A stretch of DNA of 32,265 nucleotides. Source: an uncultured archaeon. Lineage in GTDB: Archaea; Aenigmatarchaeota; Aenigmatarchaeia; GW2011-AR5; WALA01. The DNA is taken from NCBI GenBank assembly GCA_964469235.1, contig CAYYKR010000001.1:1-32265 (forward strand). The letters are read 5' to 3'. Both the position numbers and the translations under genes were made by a program. Under the pieces are notes generated by a model. That model ran no database searches. It saw only the letters and a list, made by a program, of their open reading frames with translations, and was not told the origin of the DNA. Each line of letters opens with the position of its first letter. Within the stretch, counting starts at the first letter, position 1. This document shows, in pieces, positions 2,082-26,803 of this stretch.

Positions 2082-2330
2082 ATGGAATTTATTGAAGTGA
2101 TATGGATTTCGGGGATTATAATATCTCTGGTGTTGCTATTGAAAGATATGCCAAATAAAAACATTGGCCCGTCTACCAAAGCATTTTGGATTTTCATGGT
2201 CATAGTTTTCAATGTGTTCGGGCTTCTAATTTATAGAATGTTCACGCCCAGCAGAGCCAGAGATGAAATCAAAGTTAAAAAGCCCAAAATTAAAAAATCG
2301 GTTAAAAGAAAATCAAGGGTGCGAAAATGA
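2082..2330 (+). CDS. small membrane protein, PLDc_N-like (two TM helices plus Lys/Arg-rich tail)
   Basis: 82 aa with two hydrophobic helices. The second (KAFWIFMVIVFNVFGLLIYRMF) resembles the W..I....P/N..G.L.Y pattern of the PLD-nuclease N-terminal membrane domain. The stop overlaps the ABCE1 start (ATGA, 2327-2330). Confidence 0.5.
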   Translation: MEFIEVIWISGIIISLVLLLKDMPNKNIGPSTKAFWIFMVIVFNVFGLLIYRMFTPSRARDEIKVKKPKIKKSVKRKSRVRK

Positions 2331-4072
2331 GGATAGCAGTAGTTAATTATGATAAATGCGATTCTACAAAATGTTCATGGGAATGCATGAAAGTTTGTCC
2401 AATAAATAGAAAGGGAGAAGTTTGCATAAGTGGCGGAGAAGTTATTGTAAATGGCTCAAAGAAAAAAGTTCCGATAATAGATGAATCTATATGCATTGGA
2501 TGCGGATTGTGTACAAAGAAGTGCCCTATGGAGGCAATTAAAATTGTCAACACTCCAGAACAATTGAATGAAACTCCGATTCATAGATATGGAAGAAATG
2601 GGTTTGTTCTTTTCAGACTCCCAATTCCAAAGGTGGGGGTTGTGGGGCTTCTTGGTTCAAATGGAATAGGAAAAACCACGGCGCTTAAAATTCTTGCTGG
2701 CGAATTAAAGCCGAATTTGGGAAATGAAGAATCAAATTGGGATGAAATAATAAGAGCTCACAAAGGTACGGAGCTTTTTAACTACATGAAAAAACTTTCA
2801 AAAGGAAGCATAAAGGCTATTTACAAACCTCAGCAAGTTGATAAAATTCCAAAGTTCATAAAAGGAAAGGTTGAAGATTTGATGAAGGGAGTTTCAAATG
2901 AGATTAAGAGAAAGCTCCATGTAGATAAAATTCAAAATAGAAATTTGAAAAACCTTTCTGGTGGTGAGCTCCAGAGAGTTGCAATAGCAGTAGCTCTTTC
3001 GAAAGAGGGAGATATATTTTATTTTGATGAGCCGACATCGTATTTAGATGTTAAAGAAAGGTTAAATGTTGCTAAGCTCATTAGGGAAAAATCAAGGGAA
3101 TCTCCTATAATAGTTGTTGAACACGATTTGGCAACCTTGGACTTCTTGGCCGATACAGTTCATATATTTTATGGTGTTCCCGGTGCGTTTGGTGTTGTTT
3201 CAAAGCCTTATACAGTTAGAAATGGAATAAATGCATTTTTAGATGGTTATGTGAAAAGTGACAACGTCAGATTTAGAGAGCCCACCGTGTTTGAAAAATA
3301 CAGTCGCATAAAGAAGCGTACAGAATCACTTGTTGAGTTTTCTGATATTGAAAAAACATTTGAAGGATTCAAACTTTTTGTAAAGTCAGGAAAAATATAC
3401 AAGAATCGTGTTCTTGGGATTCTTGGAGAAAATGGACTCGGTAAAACAACATTTATGAAAATACTTGCAGGTGAATACACAGATTTTAAAGGTAGTATAA
3501 ATGAAAAATTGAAAATATCTTACAAGCCTCAATTCATATCGTCTGATTATGATGGAACGGTTTTGTCATTAATTTCTTCAGTTTTCAATCCATACTCTAC
3601 AGAAATAATGAATACAATAATAAAGCCGTTGAAGATAGATAAACTCTTCGAGAAGACTGTTAAAAATCTTTCTGGTGGTGAGCTCCAGAGAGTTTCAATA
3701 GGAATTTGTCTTGGAAGAAAAGCTGATATGTATTTGCTGGATGAACCTTGCGCATATTTGGATGTTGATCAAAGGCTTGCAGTCGCAAGCATATTGAAAA
3801 AGAAAAGCGAAGGAAGCACGGTAGTTGTTATAGACCACGATTTATTGTTCTTGAATTATGTTAGCGATGACACAATGCTTTTTACAGGTGTTCCAAGTGT
3901 TGAAGGTCATGGTGAAGTTATGAGCCTTGAAGATGGCATGAATAAATTCTTGAAAGAAATCGGGATAACATTTAGAAAAGACCCGGAGAACAATAGGCCA
4001 AGGGCAAACAAGCCGGGTTCACAAAAAGACCAGGAGCAGAAATCAAAGGGAAGATACTATTTTATGGTATGA
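2327..4072 (+). CDS. abce1: ABCE1 / RNase L inhibitor-type ribosome-recycling ATPase
   Basis: N-terminal di-cluster Fe-S domain (Cx4Cx3Cx3CP and CIGCGLCTKKCP). Two ABC cassettes: Walker A GSNGIGKT and GENGLGKT, signature LSGGELQRV twice, Walker B FYFDEP and YLLDEP. Confidence 0.94.
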   Translation: MRIAVVNYDKCDSTKCSWECMKVCPINRKGEVCISGGEVIVNGSKKKVPIIDESICIGCGLCTKKCPMEAIKIVNTPEQLNETPIHRYGRNGFVLFRLPIPKVGVVGLLGSNGIGKTTALKILAGELKPNLGNEESNWDEIIRAHKGTELFNYMKKLSKGSIKAIYKPQQVDKIPKFIKGKVEDLMKGVSNEIKRKLHVDKIQNRNLKNLSGGELQRVAIAVALSKEGDIFYFDEPTSYLDVKERLNVAKLIREKSRESPIIVVEHDLATLDFLADTVHIFYGVPGAFGVVSKPYTVRNGINAFLDGYVKSDNVRFREPTVFEKYSRIKKRTESLVEFSDIEKTFEGFKLFVKSGKIYKNRVLGILGENGLGKTTFMKILAGEYTDFKGSINEKLKISYKPQFISSDYDGTVLSLISSVFNPYSTEIMNTIIKPLKIDKLFEKTVKNLSGGELQRVSIGICLGRKADMYLLDEPCAYLDVDQRLAVASILKKKSEGSTVVVIDHDLLFLNYVSDDTMLFTGVPSVEGHGEVMSLEDGMNKFLKEIGITFRKDPENNRPRANKPGSQKDQEQKSKGRYYFMV

Positions 4073-4352
4073 ACAAAAATTTCTTAAGATTTATTTTTCC
4101 ATTTTTTACTTCTACACCCTCGCTCCTAAGTATCTTTATCTTATTTTTAACACCTCGAGCAAATCCTCCAATTGAACCATCTGACATAACAACTCTTTGG
4201 CATGGAACATCTTTTCTATCGTTTGTATGAAGTATTGATCCAACGGCTCTTGGAGATGTATTTGCAATTCGTGCAACGATTCCGTATGTAGAAATTTTTC
4301 CTTTCGGGATCTTCTTTACAAATGAATAGACCCTTTCCCTACTGGTGGGCAT
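4062..4352 (-). CDS. MGMT-family (O6-alkylguanine-DNA alkyltransferase-like) DNA-binding-domain protein, PCQRV variant
   Basis: 96 aa. YGIVARIANTSPRAVGSILHTN...VPCQRVVMSDGSIGGF matches the helix-turn-helix/Asn-hinge/PCHRV core of the alkyltransferase C-terminal domain, and no N-terminal domain is present. It overlaps the upstream gene by 14 nt and the convergent ABCE1 3' end by 11 nt. Confidence 0.75.
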   Translation of the reverse strand: MPTSRERVYSFVKKIPKGKISTYGIVARIANTSPRAVGSILHTNDRKDVPCQRVVMSDGSIGGFARGVKNKIKILRSEGVEVKNGKINLKKFLFIP

Positions 4353-4794
4353 TCAATATCCTCTCTATATTTTTTAGTCTGTGAAGAATCATTTCATTTT
4401 GAGATCTTATTGATTCCATCTCTTCCATTATAAGATCCATCCTATCATTTATGTCTTGACCTTTTCCCATACCACTTTCGCGAATCCTATTGAAGTTTAT
4501 ATTTTCACCTTCATCAAGGTTTTTATTTTCTTGATTTGAAAATTGATTTTTCATCGGCATATTTAATGGTTGGAATGGTGGTATGTTGTTTTCTCCAACT
4601 TCTTTTTTAATTTCTTCTTCTATTGTTCCGGACCTCTGTTTTGCCAGTTGCTCGGGGGTTGGGAATGGATTGTATTTGTCGAGATTTATTTTTGGCTTTT
4701 GCTCTACAGCGTATTTTAGCTCATTATTAATTTCATTTGATTCTATGTTTCTCCTTCCCGTTATCTTATCTTTTATTTTATCGAGCAGAGACAT
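4339..4794 (-). CDS. hypothetical protein, 151 aa, low-complexity N/E/P-rich region with C-terminal coiled coil
   Basis: Long ORF chained to neighbours, with a 1-nt gap upstream and a 14-nt overlap downstream. The C-terminus (RMDLIMEEMESIRSQNEMILHRLKNIERIL) has a heptad-like pattern. No family recognised. Confidence 0.6.
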   Translation of the reverse strand: MSLLDKIKDKITGRRNIESNEINNELKYAVEQKPKINLDKYNPFPTPEQLAKQRSGTIEEEIKKEVGENNIPPFQPLNMPMKNQFSNQENKNLDEGENINFNRIRESGMGKGQDINDRMDLIMEEMESIRSQNEMILHRLKNIERILNAHQ

Positions 4795-4795
4795 C

Positions 4796-5305
4796 TTATA
4801 TTCCCTCCAAATCTTCTTTTACATTTATGTTAAATGCATTCAAAATATCTTCTTTAAAATCCAATGCCCATTCTTTTAGGGTGTCCATATACTGCCTTCT
4901 TCTATTGTAATAGAACATCCTCATAAATATTTTGTAAAACAATCTTTCTAAAAAATTTTTGTATGAGAATGATGTAGTTATGATGGGCCTTACTGAAAGC
5001 GTGAAATCTCCATCCTTAGTTTTCTTGCCCTCATACATATGAAATATTAATCGTACATCGTATTTCGTATATTTGTCAAATTTATTCTTGGCATTCCATT
5101 GAGCGTAAAGCTCAACCTCTGGACCTATGTCTACAAATGTGAATTCATTTTCATACCAGTTTTTTGTTGGAACGCGAAAATTCTTTTTTGCTACGGTTTT
5201 TATTATGTTGATTGCAGATGATGGTTGGTGACCCTTGTATGAAAATTTAATTGTTCCTTTAGGTGCGAGAACTTCTTCAGTCATGCTTAATTTATTAAGA
5301 CTCAT
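4796..5305 (-). CDS. hypothetical protein, 169 aa (paralogue A of a tandem pair)
   Basis: Same length and shared landmarks with the upstream ORF (F.[YF].G..P ... KK.F.VP ... W ... P..T.F ... FY ... FY..[RK]R). Overlaps it by 11 nt. Confidence 0.65.
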   Translation of the reverse strand: MSLNKLSMTEEVLAPKGTIKFSYKGHQPSSAINIIKTVAKKNFRVPTKNWYENEFTFVDIGPEVELYAQWNAKNKFDKYTKYDVRLIFHMYEGKKTKDGDFTLSVRPIITTSFSYKNFLERLFYKIFMRMFYYNRRRQYMDTLKEWALDFKEDILNAFNINVKEDLEGI

Positions 5306-5804
5306 TTAACAGCACCCCAAAGTGTTTTAATTCGGCTTGGAATCTCATACAGAGCTCCCTTCCATTGTCATATATTTGTTCTCTCTTTCTTTTGTAAAAT
5401 ATAGTGTCCCAGAGCTTTCTTATGACTTCATAAAAAACGCTTTGCTGCCATGCGTAATCTTGTGGAAATTCGGTTACAACTCTCGGCTCAAACACTATTG
5501 CTGCCTTTCCATATCCATTTTCAGAATATCCCTTGAGACTGAGCTCCATGTCTAAGTATGTCCATCTGTCGTAAGGTTTGAACAATTCCCAAGAAATTTT
5601 GAATTTATGACCATTTTCAGTTTTTTTCCAATTGTACTCCTTTTCTTGGATGTAGGAATCTGGAACGGCAAAAATCTTTTTTAGCAGTTCATTTATCTTT
5701 ACATAGAACTTTTCAGGATGTTTTCCTTCAAATCTAAAATATATCTTTTTTATGGGTGGGAACAAATCCTCCCATATAGTAAGTCTAGTCCTTGCCCATA
5801 CCAT
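5295..5804 (-). CDS. hypothetical protein, 169 aa (paralogue B of a tandem pair)
   Basis: First gene of the minus-strand chain. ATG at 5804 is preceded by GGTG with 6-nt spacing. Paralogous to 4796-5305. Confidence 0.65.
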   Translation of the reverse strand: MVWARTRLTIWEDLFPPIKKIYFRFEGKHPEKFYVKINELLKKIFAVPDSYIQEKEYNWKKTENGHKFKISWELFKPYDRWTYLDMELSLKGYSENGYGKAAIVFEPRVVTEFPQDYAWQQSVFYEVIRKLWDTIFYKRKREQIYDNGRELCMRFQAELKHFGVLLNES

Positions 5805-5847
5805 TAAAACACCTATTATTTTTATACTTTCAATAACATAAATAATT

Positions 5848-6180
5848 ATGATATTTCAAATTTTGGGCATTTTATTACTTTCGCTCGGCGTATGGATGCT
5901 TGTAACATGGGACAGAGGGCTTGATAATAAGACCTTTACAATAGTTATAATTTTGTCCATTTTATTTATATTTTTGGGTGTTAAGTTAACATTTGATGGT
6001 GTGAATCCGTCAGTTCTATGGCACAGAATACTTGGGATTGCGATAGGATTTGCTGGAGTTTTTTGCATAGTGGGATTCCCAGATGTTACTCCTGATTATC
6101 AGAGTCCAGGAATGAGCTGGCTCATGGTATTCATAGGAATAATACTTATGGTAGTTGCAGTCTATCTTCTTATTATATAA
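5848..6180 (+). CDS. small integral membrane protein, about 4 TM helices
   Basis: 110 aa, four hydrophobic stretches of about 18-20 residues. First gene of the plus-strand chain, 43 bp from the divergent gene. Confidence 0.6.
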   Translation: MIFQILGILLLSLGVWMLVTWDRGLDNKTFTIVIILSILFIFLGVKLTFDGVNPSVLWHRILGIAIGFAGVFCIVGFPDVTPDYQSPGMSWLMVFIGIILMVVAVYLLII

Positions 6181-6213
6181 AATTTATTTAATATTTGAAG
6201 TATAATTATATGT

Positions 6214-8094
6214 ATGGCAAAACCTATTACTCGAAGATATCTGCTCGATAATAGCTATTTCGATCATGGACTTAGAGATGCCGGTGTACCGCATGCTCCA
6301 GCAAATTTATTTGGACCGTTTGGAAAGTTCAAAGGTTATGCATGGGTATCGCAACCATTGGAAGGGTATTCAAACATAGTTTACATTTCTAGTCCTGGAA
6401 AAACGAGGACGGTATTTAATGGACTTATGGATTGGATGGACCAAAACAAATGGAAGAATATAGTGTTTGACAAATCAATTGAAGTGACGCCAACTCACAC
6501 AAAGTTATATCAGAGTGTTATAGGTCAGAAGTATGAGCTTCAGGCAAGGATAAAACAGGCACTTGTTTCCATATCTCAATCTGTTGCAGATTTGGAACTC
6601 TTAGAGCATGATATAAGAAAGTATGAGGAATTTGATGAATATTTGAAGGGTATGGATACAGATGTCAATCATGTAAGGGATAAAAAAGAGAAGAAGGAGC
6701 TCGAGAGAAAGAAAAAATTTTCTGAGATGGCTATAAAAACAGTTTTTGTAGATCAAGTCGATTATCATTCTGGCGGGACTGGACAAGGTCCCGGAAGGCT
6801 AAGTATGGCATTTATGAGAAACAACAACATAATGCCAACAATAGTTGATGATTTTATGATTATGGGCGGACCAGATGATTTGGACAATGGTCCGTTAAAA
6901 AATTTGTCAACAGTCGAGAAGAATATGCTTCGTATAAAATGGAAAGCATATCAAGCATGGCTATCAAGCTTTAGGAATGAGGTTGAAAGTAGATTGGGCA
7001 GACTCACTCAACTTAGAATGAGCAGGGAGAAAACACTCGATGAATTTAGGGAATGGGTCAAGCCAATTATATCGAGAGAACTTGCAATAAAGGAAGGATT
7101 CTCTGAAGAAGGAAATAGAACATTTGAAAATATAATTGGAACCGAATATTCATCTTTGGGAGAGGCTACCGCTCAGACTTATAACAATATATTATCATTT
7201 CATAGACTTTCAATTGAAGAAGTTCAAAAGACGCCATCTGAAATGTATGAAATGGCAAGCGAAAAAATTTCCGAGCTTGATTTGAAAAACATATACGATA
7301 GCATGTCTGAAATACTTGTTCTTGATGAAAATGTTGGGCTTAGAGTAAAATATCCGTGGATAACAAAAGCATGGGTAGATAGTGTTAAAGGAGATTGTAT
7401 TTCAAGGGTCAAGAGTTTAATGCTGAAAGGATTTTCAAGATATCTAATTATGTCAAATATAAGATATATGACAAGAAATACGATATATCGTGGTGAATTT
7501 GAAGTTGAAATTGGTGTGTACTTGATTGACACATTCATGATAACACCAAATATAGCAGTTGTAAAAATGATAGAGCAAAAGGCTAAGGATGAAGAGATAA
7601 AGAGATATATAAATCAAATGCTCGGACTTAAAGATGATAGAAGGACCTTAACTTATACAATAAAAAATGGAAGATATGTTGTGAATAAAGAAAATGTAAA
7701 AAAAGTCGTTAGAGATGGTGGCGACGAAAAATCTGGTTTTAAAAATTATGATGAATTGATAGAAAAATATCCGGAAAGTAGATATAAACTTAGATTTACT
7801 CCTGAAGGTGAAAATGGAACGCTTAAAGAAATTAGAAATGTATTCAACTTCAAATTTGATTTCCTAAATCATTTGTTTCCAACGCATCCAGGTGAATATT
7901 TTTCAAGTGATTATGGAGATTATATCTACAACAAATTTAGAAAAATGAAAGGCAGGGGCATGTTCTTCTCATCAACACCTTACGATAAGGACTTCTTTGA
8001 TAGGGTTGCACAATTCCATATGGTTATTACGGGAATAAATAACGGCAAGATACGTGGGAAAATTCAAAGTCTTATGGGCGTTCCGGGAATTTAG
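6214..8094 (+). CDS. large hypothetical protein, 626 aa, no family recognised
   Basis: Uninterrupted 626 codons with protein-like composition. Charged helical segment about residues 125-175 and a Gly-rich SGGTGQGPG loop at residues 186-194. Confidence 0.7.
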   Translation: MAKPITRRYLLDNSYFDHGLRDAGVPHAPANLFGPFGKFKGYAWVSQPLEGYSNIVYISSPGKTRTVFNGLMDWMDQNKWKNIVFDKSIEVTPTHTKLYQSVIGQKYELQARIKQALVSISQSVADLELLEHDIRKYEEFDEYLKGMDTDVNHVRDKKEKKELERKKKFSEMAIKTVFVDQVDYHSGGTGQGPGRLSMAFMRNNNIMPTIVDDFMIMGGPDDLDNGPLKNLSTVEKNMLRIKWKAYQAWLSSFRNEVESRLGRLTQLRMSREKTLDEFREWVKPIISRELAIKEGFSEEGNRTFENIIGTEYSSLGEATAQTYNNILSFHRLSIEEVQKTPSEMYEMASEKISELDLKNIYDSMSEILVLDENVGLRVKYPWITKAWVDSVKGDCISRVKSLMLKGFSRYLIMSNIRYMTRNTIYRGEFEVEIGVYLIDTFMITPNIAVVKMIEQKAKDEEIKRYINQMLGLKDDRRTLTYTIKNGRYVVNKENVKKVVRDGGDEKSGFKNYDELIEKYPESRYKLRFTPEGENGTLKEIRNVFNFKFDFLNHLFPTHPGEYFSSDYGDYIYNKFRKMKGRGMFFSSTPYDKDFFDRVAQFHMVITGINNGKIRGKIQSLMGVPGI

Positions 8095-8110
8095 TTGATT
8101 GGTGTTTAAA

Positions 8111-10072
8111 ATGGTAGAATTTGATGAGTATGGAAAACCTAAGGGATATATTATTGCGGCTAGTCCTGGGTTTAGTCAATTTGGTCAAGGTATGGAAAAG
8201 CTGACATTTTCCGGACTTGCAAGAAAAATAAGTAAAGCTGCCAGACTTGGTTTTGAATTTGCTATGATAGATTATGAAGCTCTTTCAGAAATGTATGAAC
8301 CCAATATAGGCGAGCAGGTTAAAAGGATGAAAGAATCTGAAAAAATGGAGGTAGGGCTTCACTTACCAATCACTTTAGACCTAACACTTGCAACATCTTT
8401 CAACTGGAGTATAATGCATGATATTCTTCAGCGCGGTGCATATTCAGGAAAGGATATAATGGGAGCTCGGTTTGTTTTGGTGCATGCATCATCGTATCCA
8501 AAGCCCGGCATAGTTTTCAGACTTGGCCAGAGAGAATATCCAGAAAAGCTCTGCGCACATGATGGAACCAATCTTGGAGAATTTATGGAGTTAGTTGACG
8601 ATGGGGTATACAACGACCCCGCGCGTGGAAATATAAAACTTTCAAATGGCCGTCGATTGAAAGACTGGTTCATGGGAAAATTCATAAAAATTCTTTTTAG
8701 TGCTATGGGTGTACCTGGTGATGTTCCAATAATAACTTACTTTGATGAAATGTCGTACAATGATGTTTATTTTGCTGAAGCTGTTAAAAAGGCAAAGCAA
8801 TTTGTTTCTGATGTTGAAAAGAGGAAAGACGAGTATGTTACAAAAAGGATGGATGAACTTATAAAAGAGGCAAATTCAATAGAAAAACAAATTAGGGACA
8901 TGGAGAAGAAAAGCGACCTTACAGAAGAAGAAAGGTCAGTATATGAAAATCTAAAAAATAAATACATTAGTTTGAGACACGATATAGACTTGGGAAACAA
9001 TAAATTCGCAAATGAATTTTTTAACAACATGGATAAAGATGAAATTAAAAAGTACATGGAGAGAAAGCGTGTAATAGAAACCGTTGAAAGATACGAATTC
9101 AATCATGTTTACGATTATTGGAAATACAATGGGTCTCAAGCGGAAGAAAATGTTGCCTATAGAGTTATTGCTAAATACATGTACCTTACCGGAGATCCAA
9201 TATGGCTCGATATAATCGGTGATATTGATCCTGACCATATAATAGATGCAGATAATAAAGTGAGAACTGCTCCTGAATTGAAGGGAAAGAAGAACAAGGA
9301 TATAAAAGAACTTGTTGATAAATTCATAATTGCCGTTGCAATAAAATATATTCAAGGCCATCTATTTTCAACTTCAACTGGAAAGGGCATGGAGAGGTAC
9401 GGATTCAACGGCTCTGTTTATGATTATTTGACTAAAAACAAGATAAGAATTTACTTTGAGAATTCTCCCCCTCTAAAAGAAGGGAGTGGAGAATTGAGAA
9501 TATCGTCCGTCATGGGATTGATAGATATTGCAAAGGAGATTGACAATGGAACATTTATTTCTGCTGCCGTGGATACCGAGCATTTGATGTCAAATCTCTA
9601 CTCTCCTTATGAACAGTTTTCATCTATTCCAGATGGATATGGAAAATACATTACGATGCTTCATATAAATGGACCGCGTCCAATTCATCCAACCCACTCG
9701 CCAATTTTTTTATACTCTCCAGACATGGAAATTATTTACAAATGGCTTTACACATTGAAAAAGAGAGGGATGACATCAGCATATTTTGTTTGGGAAATGG
9801 GGTCATATGGAGTTCGGGAGAGTGCTATAGCAATGAGACTTATAAGAAATGAGCTCTCAAAAGAAAATCCTACACCCCCAGATAAACTTCCACCAGAATT
9901 TTTCGGTATGGATGAAACATTCGATGCACGCCAAATGGTTGCCATACGTGAACATGCGTTTGACCCTCTCGAAGGTCTTATAATGGTCCCAGAAGAAAGT
10001 CATACATTCTTGTCTACGGCTGCTAAATCCAAAGGAGGGTTGGCAGTTTGGAACAAGGAGAAGTACTCATGA
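8111..10072 (+). CDS. EndoIV / xylose-isomerase-like TIM-barrel protein with large charged helical insertion (tentative)
   Basis: An ordered series of motifs resembles the AP-endonuclease-2/sugar-isomerase barrel metal ligands: EFAMIDYE, VGLHLP, FVLVHASSYP, then about 250-300 aa of K/E-rich sequence, then RIYFEN, AAVDTEHL, MLHINGP, HPTHSP, YFVWEMG. The track start at 8099 is TTG; the ATG at 8111 follows GGTG with 6-nt spacing. Confidence 0.5.
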   Translation: MVEFDEYGKPKGYIIAASPGFSQFGQGMEKLTFSGLARKISKAARLGFEFAMIDYEALSEMYEPNIGEQVKRMKESEKMEVGLHLPITLDLTLATSFNWSIMHDILQRGAYSGKDIMGARFVLVHASSYPKPGIVFRLGQREYPEKLCAHDGTNLGEFMELVDDGVYNDPARGNIKLSNGRRLKDWFMGKFIKILFSAMGVPGDVPIITYFDEMSYNDVYFAEAVKKAKQFVSDVEKRKDEYVTKRMDELIKEANSIEKQIRDMEKKSDLTEEERSVYENLKNKYISLRHDIDLGNNKFANEFFNNMDKDEIKKYMERKRVIETVERYEFNHVYDYWKYNGSQAEENVAYRVIAKYMYLTGDPIWLDIIGDIDPDHIIDADNKVRTAPELKGKKNKDIKELVDKFIIAVAIKYIQGHLFSTSTGKGMERYGFNGSVYDYLTKNKIRIYFENSPPLKEGSGELRISSVMGLIDIAKEIDNGTFISAAVDTEHLMSNLYSPYEQFSSIPDGYGKYITMLHINGPRPIHPTHSPIFLYSPDMEIIYKWLYTLKKRGMTSAYFVWEMGSYGVRESAIAMRLIRNELSKENPTPPDKLPPEFFGMDETFDARQMVAIREHAFDPLEGLIMVPEESHTFLSTAAKSKGGLAVWNKEKYS

Positions 10073-10143
10073 AGGCAATAGAAAACTTTAAATACTACAT
10101 ATGTATATATTTACTTATAAGTAATAAATTGTAAGGTGGTTAA

Positions 10144-11391
10144 ATGGTAGAAATTGTAAAAGATATGAAAGATGAAAAAAAAGAGGGTATAAAGTATTCA
10201 ACAAGTAAAAGTGAAAAGAAGAAGAATGAAAAAAAGGTTGATTTGAAGAAGTTGCGTGAAGAAAAATTCAAGCTAGCGAAGAAATTTGCAGACCAAGTTG
10301 TAAAGAAATACGGATCTGTCATAAAATCTATTGTTGTATTTGGTTCTGTTGCTCGAGGGGACATGACAGAAAAAAGTGATTTGGACATAATAGTTGTTTA
10401 CGATGATGTTCTTTCTAGGATGAGCTCCGACGTTAAGGAAAAATTTGATGAAGATTTGACTCTAACGGCTAAAAAATTGGATAAGGACATGTCAATTCAG
10501 CCTGCGTGGTCATTATCGGAATTTTGGGAAATGGCACGTATAGGGCATCCACTTTTGATAACAATTGTGAGAGACGGCTGGGCAGTTTATGATACTGGAT
10601 TTTTCATACCATTTAGAAAGCTCTTGGAAATGGGAAAAATACCTTCAACACTTGAAGCTGTAGAAGTTTTCATTTCAAATGCTCCTGAGAAAATTATGAA
10701 AGTTGAAAATATGAAACTTTACATGATAGCTGAAGATTTATACTATGCCGTTTTGAATGCATCTCAATCGGTTTTGATGTATTTAGGGCAGGGTGTTCCA
10801 TCTCCAAAGAACACTGCAAATATTTTCAGAAGATATATGGTTGATACTGGAATAGTTGATGAGAAGTATGCAAGATTCTTAGAAAAAATTGTTGAATTTA
10901 GGAAGAGGGTTGAGCATAAAGAAGTTAGAGAGGTTAGTGGTGCCGAACTCGATAGATACATAAGAAGATCAAAGATATTCGTTTCTAAGATGATGCATGT
11001 TTTGAGTCGTCTTCAGAGAAAGAAAAAAGAGGATATGATAAAAAAGAATTACGACAACATGTTAAAAGCATGTATAATAAAATTGAAGGAAATGAACAAA
11101 CTTGAAAAAGATCCAAAGAAGTTGCCTGAGCTCATCGACAAAAATATATTTAAGACAAAAGAAAACAAACCTTATAGGGAGATATTCAAGCGTGTAATAG
11201 CAATGAGAAAGTTAGTTGAAGAAGGCGAAGTCAAGAAAATACCTGAACGTGATATAGACCTTGTAAATGGATACGTAAATAGATTCTTGAAGAGCATGAA
11301 CTTATCAGAGGAAACCATAGAAAAAGGAGGAAAGATATTAGAAGATATAATTGGAAATAATAAAGATAATGAGAAAGAAGATAAAAAATGA
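10144..11391 (+). CDS. fused minimal nucleotidyltransferase (MNT) - HEPN-like protein with K/E-rich N- and C-terminal extensions
   Basis: Pol-beta-type NTase motif FGSVARGDMTEKSDLDIIVV. Downstream helical domain ends in EFRKRVEH (Rx4H, HEPN-like). SD AAGGTGG lies 4 nt upstream of the ATG. Confidence 0.65.
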   Translation: MVEIVKDMKDEKKEGIKYSTSKSEKKKNEKKVDLKKLREEKFKLAKKFADQVVKKYGSVIKSIVVFGSVARGDMTEKSDLDIIVVYDDVLSRMSSDVKEKFDEDLTLTAKKLDKDMSIQPAWSLSEFWEMARIGHPLLITIVRDGWAVYDTGFFIPFRKLLEMGKIPSTLEAVEVFISNAPEKIMKVENMKLYMIAEDLYYAVLNASQSVLMYLGQGVPSPKNTANIFRRYMVDTGIVDEKYARFLEKIVEFRKRVEHKEVREVSGAELDRYIRRSKIFVSKMMHVLSRLQRKKKEDMIKKNYDNMLKACIIKLKEMNKLEKDPKKLPELIDKNIFKTKENKPYREIFKRVIAMRKLVEEGEVKKIPERDIDLVNGYVNRFLKSMNLSEETIEKGGKILEDIIGNNKDNEKEDKK

Positions 11392-11400
11392 GGTGGTTAG

Positions 11401-11604
11401 ATGAAACCAGATTTTTCCATTCACGGACTCTGGATTTTGGGTGCCGTGTTTATGACATTTGGGTGCTTGATTTTAGGGAATGTTGAATGGGTTGAAGGAA
11501 CTACAACATCAAGTTTTATAATATCATTGACTCTTGCATTTTTGCTCATACTGATAGCTGGAATGTTTTGGATATCAGCAGCAGTTAATGCAAAGAATGT
11601 GTAA
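11401..11604 (+). CDS. small membrane protein, 2 TM helices
   Basis: 67 aa with two hydrophobic helices. Starts 9 nt after the previous stop, preceded by GAGGTGG. Confidence 0.5.
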   Translation: MKPDFSIHGLWILGAVFMTFGCLILGNVEWVEGTTTSSFIISLTLAFLLILIAGMFWISAAVNAKNV

Positions 11605-12377: not shown

Positions 12378-12830
12378 ATGGCAAGAATGCATTCAAGAAA
12401 ACATGGAAAATCCGGGTCCAAAAAACCGGATGAATTGAAAAAACCAATTTGGTTATCTTACGATAAAATAGAAGCTGAAAAGATAGTTGTAAAGTTGGCT
12501 AAGGAAGGACACTCGCCAGCTATGATAGGCCTTATTCTCAGAGACCAATATGGCATACCTGATATAAGAATTTACAAAGAAAGAATTCATGATATATTGA
12601 AAAAGAATAACCTCCTTCCAGAAATTCCAGAGGATTTGTATTCACTTTTGAAAAGAACCGTTGAGCTCAGAAAGCACATGAATAAAAATAAAAAAGATTC
12701 GGTCTCTAAGCACGGTCTTGAACTTCTAGAATCAAAAGTTAGGAGACTTGTAAAGTATTATAGAAGAGTCGGAAAACTTCCAAAGAATTGGAAATACGAT
12801 CCAGAGAAAGCAAAATTGCTCGTAAGGTAA
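12378..12830 (+). CDS. rps15: 30S ribosomal protein S15 (uS15, S13e type)
   Basis: [18 protein letters not shown]-terminus and C-terminal S15 helical domain ([29 protein letters not shown]). SD GGTG lies upstream. Confidence 0.93.
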
Positions 12831-12918
12831 TTTATTATTTTTAATTTTATTTTGTTAATTTCTGATTTTTATTGAATAATGTTTTATTAATTTACGCAAC
12901 AATAACTAATGTGATATT

Positions 12919-13527
12919 ATGGAGAAGATTGCACAGGGGGCTGAAGCTGTAATTTACAGAGACGAAGATAGGATAGTGAAAGTCAGATTGCCCAAGAAAT
13001 ATAGAATAAAACAATTGGATGATAAACTTATAAAATATAGGACGCGCCGAGAAATTAAGATACTTACTGATATGAGAGAAAATGGAATCCCGGTTCCGAG
13101 GGTAATGAATTCAGGCAAAAAAAATCTTGAAGATAAAGACCGTAAAATTGAAATGGAATTTATAGAAGGGAAAAAAGTTTTGGACGTATTAAATTCTTCA
13201 AACTGCGAGAGCATTTGTCATAAGATTGGAAAATATGTTGCAGAGATGCATGAGCTCAACATAATTCATGGAGACCTCACGACATCGAATATGATATTCA
13301 AAGATGGAAAGGTGTATTTCATAGATTTTGGACTTGGAAGGCATTCAAATAAAATAGAGGATAAGGCCATAGATTTAATAGTTTTTGAGAGATGCCTAAG
13401 GTCAAGCCACATTAAATTATTCGAATGCTGTTGGAAGAATTTTTTAAGTGGATACAAGAAATATGATAAATTTTTGGAGATTATGAATAGAATAGAAAAG
13501 ATAAATAAGAGGAGAAGATATACGTGA
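12919..13527 (+). CDS. bud32: Bud32/PRPK-type atypical Ser/Thr kinase (KEOPS subunit)
   Basis: GAEAVIY N-terminus, KYRTRREIKIL, catalytic HGDLTTSNMIF and YFIDFGL, EDKAIDL. About 200 aa as expected. Confidence 0.85.
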   Translation: MEKIAQGAEAVIYRDEDRIVKVRLPKKYRIKQLDDKLIKYRTRREIKILTDMRENGIPVPRVMNSGKKNLEDKDRKIEMEFIEGKKVLDVLNSSNCESICHKIGKYVAEMHELNIIHGDLTTSNMIFKDGKVYFIDFGLGRHSNKIEDKAIDLIVFERCLRSSHIKLFECCWKNFLSGYKKYDKFLEIMNRIEKINKRRRYT

Positions 13528-13531
13528 TTGC

Positions 13532-14818
13532 ATGGAGCTCATAGATGTTTTAAAGGAGAATATTGGCATTCTAAAAAATTTCGATGGATATATAAAAGTT
13601 GTATCTCATTACGATGCCGATGGGATATCTAGTGCAGCTATATTATATTCAGCTTTAAGAAGAAATGGAAATGATTTCTCAATACGCATAGTTAAAAGGA
13701 TAGATGACGATTTGATAGAAGATATAAATACAGAAAATCCGGACCTTGTTATTTTTTCCGATATAGGTTCTAGCTACGATTTGAGAAAATTAAAACCTCG
13801 TGCAATATTGCTAGACCATCACGAATCCAAAAAACTTTTTGGGAGCAAAGTCATAGAGATTAATCCGATGAATTTTTCTATAGAGGAGCTCTCCGGGAGC
13901 GGAGTGACTTATTTGTTCATGAAGGAGTTGAACAGGTACAATATATTTCTTTCATATCTTGGTATTGCAGGAGCAATTGGGGATATACGTCCGATAGTTG
14001 GAATGAATTTTGAAATTTTGAGCGATGCGCAAAAGGCAGGTGTTATGACGGTTTCAAAGTCCTTGAATGTTTTTGGGTCAACGACACGCCCGCTCCATAA
14101 ATCAATATACATGAATCAAATTCTACCCAATATTAATTCAGAATCGTCCTCGATACAATTTCTGTCGCAGGCTGGGATAAAGGTAAAAGATGAAAATGGC
14201 TGGAGGACTTTGAGTGATTTGTCTGATGATGAGATGAGGAAACTAACATCAGCAATAATAGCTGAAAGAATTGGAAATGGATTTAGAAATCATTCGGATA
14301 TATTTTCGGTAAGGATGTTGATAAATGGAATTAATATGGATGTGAACGAATTTTCTACCATACTCAATGCATTTGGACGTCTTGGAAAGTATTACGACGG
14401 TATAAAATTTGCAGTAAATCCAACAAGAGATGTTGCAATGAAAGTATACAAGGAGTACAAGAAGTCCATAGGGAAATATATGCGATGGTCAGCTGAAAAT
14501 GTTGAGCTCAAGAAGTTCACGCTCATAGATGCAGATGATAAAATTAATCCAAATTTTATAGGAACCATATGCTCAATGATAATAAAATCCAATGACAATG
14601 TCGATACGATAGTTGGATTGGCAAACGATGAAGGCGGTACCATAAAAGTTTCGGCACGCTCGAAGAAAATTGACATGAATTCTGTTGTGACAAAGATAAT
14701 AGACAAAATTGGTGGAGAGGCAGGAGGTCATTACAACGCCGCCGGCGCTACAATAGAAATTGGAAAGAAAAAGCAGTTTTTAGATGAGTTAAAAAGGATT
14801 TTAAATGTTTCCTTCTAA
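13532..14818 (+). CDS. DHH-family RecJ-like phosphoesterase (archaeal RecJ/GAN-type)
   Basis: DHH motifs HYDADGISSA, FSDIGS, LLDHHES and DHHA1 motif GGHYNAAGA. The rps15-adjacent position is typical for archaeal RecJ-like genes. Confidence 0.85.
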   Translation: MELIDVLKENIGILKNFDGYIKVVSHYDADGISSAAILYSALRRNGNDFSIRIVKRIDDDLIEDINTENPDLVIFSDIGSSYDLRKLKPRAILLDHHESKKLFGSKVIEINPMNFSIEELSGSGVTYLFMKELNRYNIFLSYLGIAGAIGDIRPIVGMNFEILSDAQKAGVMTVSKSLNVFGSTTRPLHKSIYMNQILPNINSESSSIQFLSQAGIKVKDENGWRTLSDLSDDEMRKLTSAIIAERIGNGFRNHSDIFSVRMLINGINMDVNEFSTILNAFGRLGKYYDGIKFAVNPTRDVAMKVYKEYKKSIGKYMRWSAENVELKKFTLIDADDKINPNFIGTICSMIIKSNDNVDTIVGLANDEGGTIKVSARSKKIDMNSVVTKIIDKIGGEAGGHYNAAGATIEIGKKKQFLDELKRILNVSF

Positions 14819-17779: not shown

Positions 17780-17878
17780 GCGGGGGTGCCCAAGCCTGGT
17801 CAAAGGGGCAGGACTTAAGGAATTTATGAGAAATCCTGTGGCTTAGTGCCTTCGAGGGTTCAAATCCCTTCCCCCGCA
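17780..17878 (+). tRNA. tRNA-Leu (anticodon UAA) with 13-nt intron at 37/38
   Basis: Acceptor GCGGGGG/CCCCCGC plus discriminator A. Anticodon stem CAGGA(17809-13)/UCCUG(17834-38), anticodon TAA at 17816-18, long variable arm, T-arm GAGGG-TTCAAAT-CCCTT. Intron 17820-17832. No encoded CCA. Confidence 0.9.
17820..17832 (+). other. tRNA-Leu intron (13 nt), relaxed bulge-helix-bulge
   Basis: 4-bp helix C14-G30, U15-A29, U16.G28, A17-U27 (last two digits of coordinates) flanked by 3-nt bulges AGG (17818-20) and AAA (17831-33). Only 6 nt remain for the outer part. Confidence 0.75.
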
Positions 17879-26710: not shown

Positions 26711-26803
26711 TGGACCGACCGGGATTTGAACCCGGAATCTTCACCATTTCGGTATAATATTCAATCGCCAAGGTGACGTCCTACCAGATTAGACTATCGG
26801 CCC
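26711..26803 (-). tRNA. tRNA-Ala (anticodon GGC) with 19-nt intron at 37/38
   Basis: Minus-strand read GGGCCGA-UA-GUCU-AAUCUGGUA-GGAC-G-UCACC-UUGGCG[intron]U-GGUGA-AGAUU-CCGGG-UUCAAAU-CCCGG-UCGGUCC-A. G3:U70 alanine identity pair is present. Anticodon at 26769-26767. No encoded CCA. Confidence 0.9.
26747..26765 (-). other. tRNA-Ala intron (19 nt)
   Basis: 4-bp helix UUGG/CCGA (one G.U) flanked by 3-nt bulges CGA and AAU. The outer helix is weak and AU-rich. Confidence 0.75.

Follow-up and report, generated by a model that had tools for sequence, protein, structure and literature searches.

The stretch of DNA analyzed here, 32,265 nucleotides of contig CAYYKR010000001.1 (assembly GCA_964469235.1) from an uncultured archaeon of the Aenigmatarchaeota and hereafter called the window, contains a real, vertically inherited and undescribed cluster of eight genes: cc151, parB, parA, tm110, p626, p657, nt415, which encodes a nucleotidyltransferase (NTase), and tm67. 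The full set occurs in Aenigmatarchaeota, and its core (cc, p626, p657 and NTase) is also present in a contig labeled Nanohaloarchaea; no paper describing the cluster was found in the published literature. Tentatively, we read it as a lineage-specific housekeeping cluster, passed on vertically, whose products may form a membrane-tethered phosphodiesterase complex together with a more loosely linked NTase module. Each of the two enzymes is a divergent member of a known superfamily; no counterpart is known for at least four of the families or for the complete assembly.

The evidence that carries this finding is the conservation of gene order. Hidden Markov models (HMMs) of the individual window proteins were mapped onto all recruited loci, including 49 loci from a scan in which each GTDB species was represented by one genome and 80 loci from an independent metagenome scan seeded with the NTase alone, 34 of which had at least 7.5 kb of upstream sequence. 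The titles of the 49 GTDB-species loci nearly all read Aenigmatarchaeota, "Nanobdellati" or "Nanohalarchaeota", and the homologs of p626 and p657 are all unnamed or "hypothetical", any label that they carry being Aenigmarchaeota or another DPANN group. Contigs with p626 relatives at 31–37% identity already have the layout of the window. In its common form, the tether gene (product of ~130–150 amino acids, aa) and two paralogous genes are read in one direction and diverge from the genes for a protein with four transmembrane (TM) segments (~110 aa), p626, p657, the NTase (~400 aa) and a 2-TM protein (~67 aa), the whole block being bracketed by ABCE1 and rpS3Ae in most loci. This order was found in ~34 independent loci at protein identities of 30–70%, and among the 34 NTase-recruited loci, p626 and p657 lie upstream in 27 and the full set is present in 20. 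The preliminary description of this DNA, made from its letters alone, had proposed neighborhood conservation as a check on its idea of a system; the order is kept in dozens of loci, which speaks decisively against the outcome in which no relative would share it.

At least seven rearranged orders still keep the genes adjacent. In L039 and L032 (recruited loci are given by number), tm110 and then p626 are read away from parA and parB, beyond which cc diverges from p657 and the NTase gene; L041 to L043 repeat this order without p626. L016, L019, L021, L038 and L040 carry parA and parB followed by cc, which diverges from p657, and L034 retains a par gene diverging from tm110 and p657. L061 and L062 show a strand-swapped form, ABCE1 in L074 and L087 splits p626, p657, NTase and tm67 from the cc-par-par group and its divergent tm110, and L057 has a further order. 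An exhaustive search for p626 representatives led to a distant relative in the contig labeled "Nanohaloarchaea", where cc diverges from p626 and p657, and the NTase gene is set apart from them by two opposite-strand genes (HMM E-values 3e-8 for cc, 1e-46 for p626, 7e-35 for p657 and 2e-100 for the NTase); p626 and p657 are highly diverged in this contig. The main argument that the genes work together is that their neighborhood persists through rearrangement, and this persistence counts for more than the mere fact that a quiet part of the genome has been inherited jointly.

In the window, the genes form two back-to-back chains. The minus-strand chain is led by parA (169 aa, 5295–5804) and continues with parB (169 aa, 4796–5305), cc151 (151 aa, 4339–4794) and a ninth gene for a 96-aa MGMT-like protein (4062–4352); successive genes first overlap by 11 nt, are then 1 nt apart and finally overlap by 14 nt. 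The plus-strand chain is led by tm110 (110 aa, 5848–6180) and continues with p626 (626 aa, 6214–8094), p657 (653 aa, 8111–10072), nt415 (415 aa, 10144–11391) and tm67 (67 aa, 11401–11604), separated in order by 33, 16, 71 and 9 nt. Between the two chains lies a 43-bp spacer (5805–5847), a putative divergent promoter region. All open reading frame coordinates, overlaps, gaps and the spacer length in the preliminary description were reproduced exactly. The start of p657 is ambiguous, since public gene calls are split between TTG at 8099 (657 aa) and ATG at 8111 (653 aa); its orthologs start near the position of the ATG. No structured RNAs were found within the gene block.

Scans with Pfam, NCBIfam, PHROGs and PADLOC recognize only two of the nine window proteins, the MGMT-like protein and nt415, and six of the nine have no family in any of these collections, which bears out the earlier statement that six were unplaceable. 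Hydropathy analysis gives four hydrophobic segments for tm110, two for tm67 and none for the other proteins of the cluster, matching the 4-TM and 2-TM assignments made before and identifying both as predicted integral-membrane proteins.

The most informative member of the cluster is p657. Its AlphaFold2 model, built from a 48-ortholog alignment (mean predicted local distance difference test score, pLDDT, 88; predicted TM-score, pTM, 0.85), matched xylose-isomerase-like barrels in Foldseek with probability 1.0 and target-normalized TM-scores of up to 0.68, among them D-tagatose/D-allulose 3-epimerases, UlaE, EndoIV and xylose isomerase. We are confident in the predicted assignment of p657 to the xylose-isomerase-like (AP_endonuc_2) TIM barrels, a superfamily for which an overview, with its EndoIV and CbiR phosphodiesterase branches, is available (Mok et al. 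2020, PMC7733943). The model PF01261 matches 23 of the 48 orthologs (best E 1e-12) and is precomputed on many homologs, and the CbiR cobamide phosphodiesterase model gives weak matches in 13 of the 48. Residues ~183–420 constitute a ~240-aa insertion of long helices and coiled coil that splits the barrel and includes a hairpin of 45+35 residues whose length varies among orthologs; model and Foldseek results agree with the earlier view of this protein as TIM-barrel-like with a charged insertion, which proves to be helical. No meaningful sequence or profile match to the Protein Data Bank (PDB) was obtained for p657, also with the insertion removed; matches to the IRSp53 IMD and Rpn2 at E ~0.02 in the PDB searches with the cluster proteins were set aside as products of coiled-coil composition.

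Within the barrel, H84, H125, E450, D488-x-x-H491, H518-x-N520, H529 and E562 are invariant in 48 sequences and fall where the predicted strands 80–84, 121–125, 446–450, 483–488, 514–519 and 557–562 end. The invariant residues, five His together with Asp and Glu, are placed at the C-terminal ends of the predicted barrel strands. In the sugar epimerases of this superfamily, a single His is used together with two Glu and one Asp. EndoIV reportedly employs five His, two Asp and two Glu to bind three zinc ions, and the trinuclear site of the E. coli enzyme is said to consist of H69, H109, E145, D179, H182, H216, D229, H231 and E261. For eight of these nine ligand positions, plausible invariant counterparts exist in p657, according to a mapping made by eye and with a non-significant hhalign alignment, the latter pairing DTEH and HIN of p657 with DTCH and HLN of Nfo. 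The presence of five invariant His, together with the motifs DxxH and HxN, suggests that p657 belongs to the phosphodiesterase branch. It shares with EndoIV (Nfo/Apn1) and CbiR the (beta/alpha)8 barrel and, as far as the mapping by eye goes, most of the EndoIV His, Asp and Glu ligands at strand ends, and differs from them by the ~240-aa insertion between strands 3 and 4, by a conserved C-terminal tail of ~70 aa and by the lack of any significant sequence match to Nfo or any PDB chain. No nfo-specific NCBIfam or Pfam model matched p657, and its scores stay below the nfo and CbiR equivalog cutoffs. The last ~65 residues (~590–653, window ~9880–10072) are among the most conserved of the protein (LPPEFFGxDExFEAxQxVAIREHAxDPLxG...PEExH) and are modeled at a pLDDT of only 47–71; this segment may fold on a partner.

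The almost invariable upstream neighbor of p657 encodes an orphan, p626. A total of 54 homologs were collected for p626, and the exhaustive search yielded 303 representatives at 50% identity (E ≤ 1e-3). Its AlphaFold2 model, derived from 50 sequences (pLDDT 80, pTM 0.69), starts with a small alpha/beta unit, which is followed in order by a long helical hairpin, a Gly-rich loop, a 60-residue helix and beta-hairpin/helix domains. The hairpin, the strongly conserved Gly-rich loop (HxGGxGQGPGRLSMAFMRNNNIMPTIVDDF) and the 60-aa helix, the length of which is constant across the family, make up the conserved core (residues ~85–290), and distant relatives keep only this core (profile positions ~47–320). 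Foldseek searches with the model gave no significant match in the PDB or BFVD (best E 0.19 and 0.009, TM-scores below 0.2); scattered matches to START, Bet v 1, BAR-PH and Tc-toxin folds have low TM-scores and are not taken as evidence. Neither the whole protein nor its core has a PDB profile match or a Pfam relative, and profile–profile tests revealed no homology of p626 to the par proteins or to p657. A tubulin/FtsZ-like reading of the GGxGQG loop was rejected, as the loop follows a long helix and has no Rossmann-type context. In L003/L004 (14700–18300), p626 has, at a distance of ~3 kb, a densely packed group of small MNT/HepT toxin–antitoxin-like genes and an S-layer protein gene; this is the genome in which p626 stands apart from p657.

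The minus-strand operon begins with two paralogs. ParA and parB were recognized as related in the preliminary description, and BLASTP confirms this with 22% identity over 166 aa (E 2e-9). Each forms its own orthologous group (alignment A3), and these groups are older than the sampled diversification. Both are alpha+beta orphans, parA being marked by the motif MVWARTKL...TEYPQD...FYxKxR; the family has no relatives in Pfam or the PDB, and none were found beyond Aenigmarchaeota-labeled sequences. All named sequences among the 64 parA homologs are Aenigmarchaeota entries annotated as "hypothetical protein".

Across loci, cc151 always adjoins the paralogs or p657. Its 22 orthologs (alignment A6) have a short amphipathic motif of basic character at the N-terminus (MSLLDKIKDKI), a disordered, Pro/Gln-rich linker that varies between them and, at the C-terminus, a conserved helix of ~30 aa (LxxIRSQNExIxxRLKNIExRL). 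This layout points to a flexible tether or adaptor, and the N-terminal 11-mer, with a hydrophobic moment of 0.2–0.7, offers only a suggestion of membrane binding. Orthologs of tm110 keep their position in most loci, and the protein, which has no family match in Pfam or NCBIfam, may serve as a membrane anchor.

The second enzyme, nt415, carries in its N-terminal third an NTP_transf_2 domain (PF01909, E 2e-11). It matches the MntA model at E 2e-7, below the cutoff of that model, and among solved structures, the N-domain of kanamycin nucleotidyltransferase (KNTase; E 3e-9) comes closest to it. The Pol-beta NTase motif G67 S68 ... S78 D79 x D81 ... D87 D88 is invariant in 16 orthologs (alignment A4), and the tail contains FRKRVEH at 252–258, an Rx4H motif (R253-KRVE-H258). 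The HepT-like model PF01934 gives weak matches in seven of the 16 orthologs (best E 4e-4), whereas the window protein lacks such a match. The preliminary description had called this protein a fused nucleotidyltransferase–HEPN; the NTase half stands on PF01909, and for the HEPN half the Rx4H motif and the seven weak HepT-like matches are faint indications. In the clade of L039, L041 and L043, the motif reads FAKDVEY or FAKEMEH, the Arg of Rx4H being lost, and the NTases of L041 and L043 score above the Pfam threshold of the MTPAP-like poly(A)-polymerase palm domain. An identity of the NTase as CCA-adding enzyme was rejected, since neither tRNA_NucTransf2 nor cca models match it. The tm67 gene keeps its position after the NTase gene and is tightly coupled to it, by a 9-nt gap in the window and a 4-nt overlap in L001. 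The NTase is the loosest member of the cluster.

Several variants of this gene were observed. The NTases of L041 (12600–14387) and L043 (12549–14210) reach 553–595 aa through an N-terminal extension with a RadA-like helix-hairpin-helix (HhH; HHH_5, E 5e-4, below cutoff), which hints at nucleic-acid binding. In L133 and L136 to L139 (~9080–11100), the gene is tandemly duplicated downstream of p657, a ~280-aa copy preceding one of ~380–400 aa. At the site in L059 where the NTase and 2-TM genes are missing, an HD-domain protein is encoded on the opposite strand (12809–13585, minus strand).

Compared with MNT-HEPN systems (MntA/HepT, type VII) and KNTase, nt415 shares the Pol-beta core with its GS...DxD signature; an Rx4H-like motif and weak HepT-like tail matches hint at a further resemblance. 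It differs from them as a single fused polypeptide with a Lys-rich N-terminus and an extra helical C-terminus of ~130 aa, by its coupling to a 2-TM protein and by vertical inheritance in a housekeeping context; in place of a two-gene toxin–antitoxin organization with a patchy, mobile distribution, a single gene occupies a fixed locus in dozens of species. Its architecture and context are those of cls.004259 (NEQ050), a DPANN-specific cluster described as MNT fused to HEPN in a housekeeping context and singled out among the unknowns as a priority (Makarova, Wolf and Koonin 2019, PMC6393860); that paper reports no linkage of cls.004259 to p626, p657, par or TM genes. Judged by the published description rather than by sequence, nt415 probably belongs to this DPANN-wide fusion family.

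The MGMT-like gene is, by contrast with these eight, a recent passenger and not a component of the cluster. The 96-aa product is an MGMT-type DNA-binding domain, as stated in the preliminary description (PF01035, DNA_binding_1, E 6e-22; TIGR00589, E 2e-15). It shares with Ogt, MGMT and ATL proteins the C-terminal DNA-binding/active-site domain and the acceptor Cys (PCQRV), and differs from them by the absence of the N-terminal domain, by Gln in place of the His of PCHR and by a gene that is not conserved with the cluster. The 3' end of the gene overlaps that of ABCE1 convergently by 11 nt (4062–4072). HMM mapping found no homolog in any of the 56 related loci first examined; the gene is present in L059 (60% p626 identity) and absent from the closer L060 (68%). 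Given this occurrence, the gene was inserted recently between ABCE1 and the tether gene, and its earlier assignment to the system has to be withdrawn, L059 being the only other locus that has it.

Taken together, these features suggest the following arrangement. As an active metal-dependent phosphodiesterase of the EndoIV/CbiR type and not a sugar isomerase, p657 would work in a complex with p626, which a parA/parB heterodimer would join. The assembly would be held at the cytoplasmic face of the membrane by cc151, through its amphipathic N-terminus, flexible linker and C-terminal coiled-coil helix, with the 4-TM protein tm110 as a further anchor, and the NTase-HEPN protein with its 2-TM partner would constitute a second, more loosely linked module. 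Among the candidate substrates, a phosphodiester in nucleic-acid ends or lesions leads, although at well below even odds; it is favored by ligands like those of EndoIV, by an NTase of RNA type and by the fusion of the latter to HhH. The head groups of lipids or glycans are less likely targets still.

A number of observations weigh against this arrangement. The best Foldseek matches of p657 are sugar (ketose 3-) epimerases and not EndoIV, the window protein reaches no Pfam model (no PF01261 match at E ≤ 0.1), no equivalent of EndoIV Asp229 was found in it, and its hhalign comparison with Nfo is not significant (E 0.16). For the EndoIV-like barrel of the preliminary description, the fold holds, and the likeness to EndoIV comes down to a residue pattern read by eye; the accompanying statement that all nameable domains act on nucleic acids was too strong. 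Membrane targeting by cc151 draws on a modest hydrophobic moment of its N-terminus, and the complex itself is deduced from genes, physical interaction being a prediction. Insertion length in p657 and hairpin length in p626 are not positively correlated (Spearman −0.21, p 0.15), and the par and TM proteins were undetected by HMMs in the Nanohaloarchaea-labeled locus. No NTase gene follows p657 in L059, seven of the 34 loci recruited with the NTase lack p626 or p657 upstream of it, and the gene probably has a wider distribution than the rest of the cluster. Finally, the synteny of ABCE1 and rpS3Ae is conserved as well, and gene order may in part be inherited rather than selected.

Two other explanations account for part of the same observations. 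The proteins could form mainly a structural membrane scaffold or cytoskeletal assembly, for instance at the contact between symbiont and host, with p626 and the p657 insertion as long BAR-like or coiled-coil elements that bend or connect membranes and the barrel as a pseudo-enzyme or regulatory domain. The long helical hairpins of both large proteins, the fixed length of the 60-aa helix of p626 and the membrane-tether layout of cc151 with two TM partners would suit such a role, and the top matches of p626 and of the p657 insertion, both non-significant, are to BAR-PH (E 0.19) and the IRSp53 IMD (E 0.018). Matches of this kind are, however, at chance level for charged helices, and hairpin lengths vary widely; with a complete invariant His/Asp/Glu set, which argues for catalysis rather than a pseudo-enzyme, and no signal peptides or extracellular domains, we consider a primarily structural function unlikely. 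The coiled-coil structural role and the membrane association offered in the preliminary description nevertheless both stay viable. Alternatively, there may be no single system, only unrelated lineage-specific housekeeping genes that have remained adjacent through slow rearrangement of the region. ABCE1 and rpS3Ae flanking the block in most loci, the NTase being lost from it (L059) or standing alone, and the location of p626 and p657 on different contigs in GCA_964407715.1 (L003, L036) are what would be expected on that account. At least seven rearrangements have shuffled order and strand, yet cc, the two par genes, tm110, p626 and p657 remain within a few kb, their junctions are tight or overlapping, and the cc–p626–p657–NTase neighborhood survives strong divergence in the Nanohaloarchaea-labeled contig, so that this account appears improbable.

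Least probable, in our judgment, is the membrane-associated module for nucleic-acid damage, defense or surveillance that the preliminary description had put forward, with an MNT-HEPN sensor or effector, an EndoIV-like nuclease effector and an MGMT damage reader; we regard it as very unlikely. Its basis would be the matches of the NTase to the PADLOC model PDC-S09 (E 3e-13) and to MntA, the HepT-like matches among NTase orthologs, the EndoIV-like metal-site pattern of p657 and the 14-nt overlap of the MGMT-like gene with cc151. The MGMT-like gene is, however, absent from all relatives but one, the HEPN Rx4H Arg is lost in one clade, and the constant housekeeping location of the cluster across dozens of species is the reverse of the patchy and mobile distribution shown by defense genes. 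In PADLOC, only the NTase matches, and it does so to generic candidate models, whereas the other eight proteins give none. Searches of phages, plasmids and IMG/VR returned no matches to the cluster families (for nt415, the collection searches concern its neighbors), by which an origin from mobile elements was rejected. When held against the systems cataloged in PADLOC, the cluster differs in having ribosomal and translation genes as neighbors and vertical synteny. Defense is therefore unlikely because the locus is fixed between ABCE1 and rpS3Ae, the labels are almost all Aenigmatarchaeota or DPANN, mobile matches are lacking and the non-NTase proteins match no defense model. A narrower version of the idea, a housekeeping role in DNA or RNA repair, is contained in the tethered-phosphodiesterase explanation that we favor.

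The 43-bp spacer between the two operons contains TTATTTTTATAC at 5816–5827, the TATA-like run that the preliminary description took to serve both directions. The run is present; the spacer holds two AT-rich boxes (5816–5827 and 5838–5847), and the TATA-like octamer is not enriched in the AT-rich window (24 found, 33.8 expected). A GGTG Shine–Dalgarno-like element before parA corresponds to the complement of CACC at 5810–5813. The 40–43-bp spacers of L024, L025 and L001 show the same layout as that of the window, with one AT-rich box ~22–30 nt ahead of the start codon (ATG) of tm110, another that adjoins this ATG and faces parA, and a GGTG element 5–8 nt ahead of the parA start. In view of these related spacers with two AT-rich boxes, the single bidirectional TATA box was set aside, and two back-to-back promoters appear the more natural interpretation.

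The block is set among housekeeping genes, as had been noted before: the genes for RtcB, a small PLDc_N protein and ABCE1 precede it in window coordinates, those for rpS3Ae, rpS15, a RIO-type kinase and a DHH phosphoesterase follow it, and the remainder of the window is likewise housekeeping. The PLDc_N-domain protein (82 aa, 2082–2330, plus strand) overlaps the start of ABCE1 by 4 nt, and this pairing is kept in the relatives L059 and L060. SecA is normally bacterial; in L001, a DPANN contig, the gene directly upstream of ABCE1 (2875–6225, plus strand) encodes 1116 aa with the domains SecA_DEAD and P-loop_SecA, which may represent horizontal transfer or an assembly chimera. Two tRNA genes in the window pass the Rfam tRNA threshold (17780–17878, plus strand, 99 nt; 26711–26803, minus strand, 93 nt). 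ARAGORN assigns no normal anticodon to either, which fits intron-containing archaeal tRNAs, and the RtcB ligase (607–2034) is encoded in the same window as both of these putative intron-containing tRNAs.

DPANN archaea represent a large share of archaeal diversity, and most of their lineage-specific genes are without an assigned function. Against this background, the cluster provides a phylum-wide linked set of eight genes, six of them in unannotated families, the largest of which has a confident predicted structure lacking a PDB or BFVD match. It also supplies a genomic context for the "MNT-HEPN in housekeeping context" gene and corrects a tempting, unsupported reading of such blocks as defense islands. 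With one probable metallo-phosphodiesterase and one nucleotidyltransferase, the cluster is a testable target. Nanohaloarchaea include members grown in co-culture, and if cultured Nanohaloarchaea carry the core, proteomics and cryo-electron tomography would be feasible. At its most far-reaching, and on a reading that we hold to be improbable though worth stating, the cluster could encode a new membrane-attached machine of the Aenigmatarchaeota/Nanohaloarchaeota branch of the DPANN episymbionts, in which at least four relative-less families are built around an EndoIV-like phosphodiesterase and an RNA-type NTase, and which would process phosphodiester-linked material (nucleic acids or lipid head groups) that these cells, poor in biosynthetic capacity, have to take from their hosts, and so be core to symbiosis.

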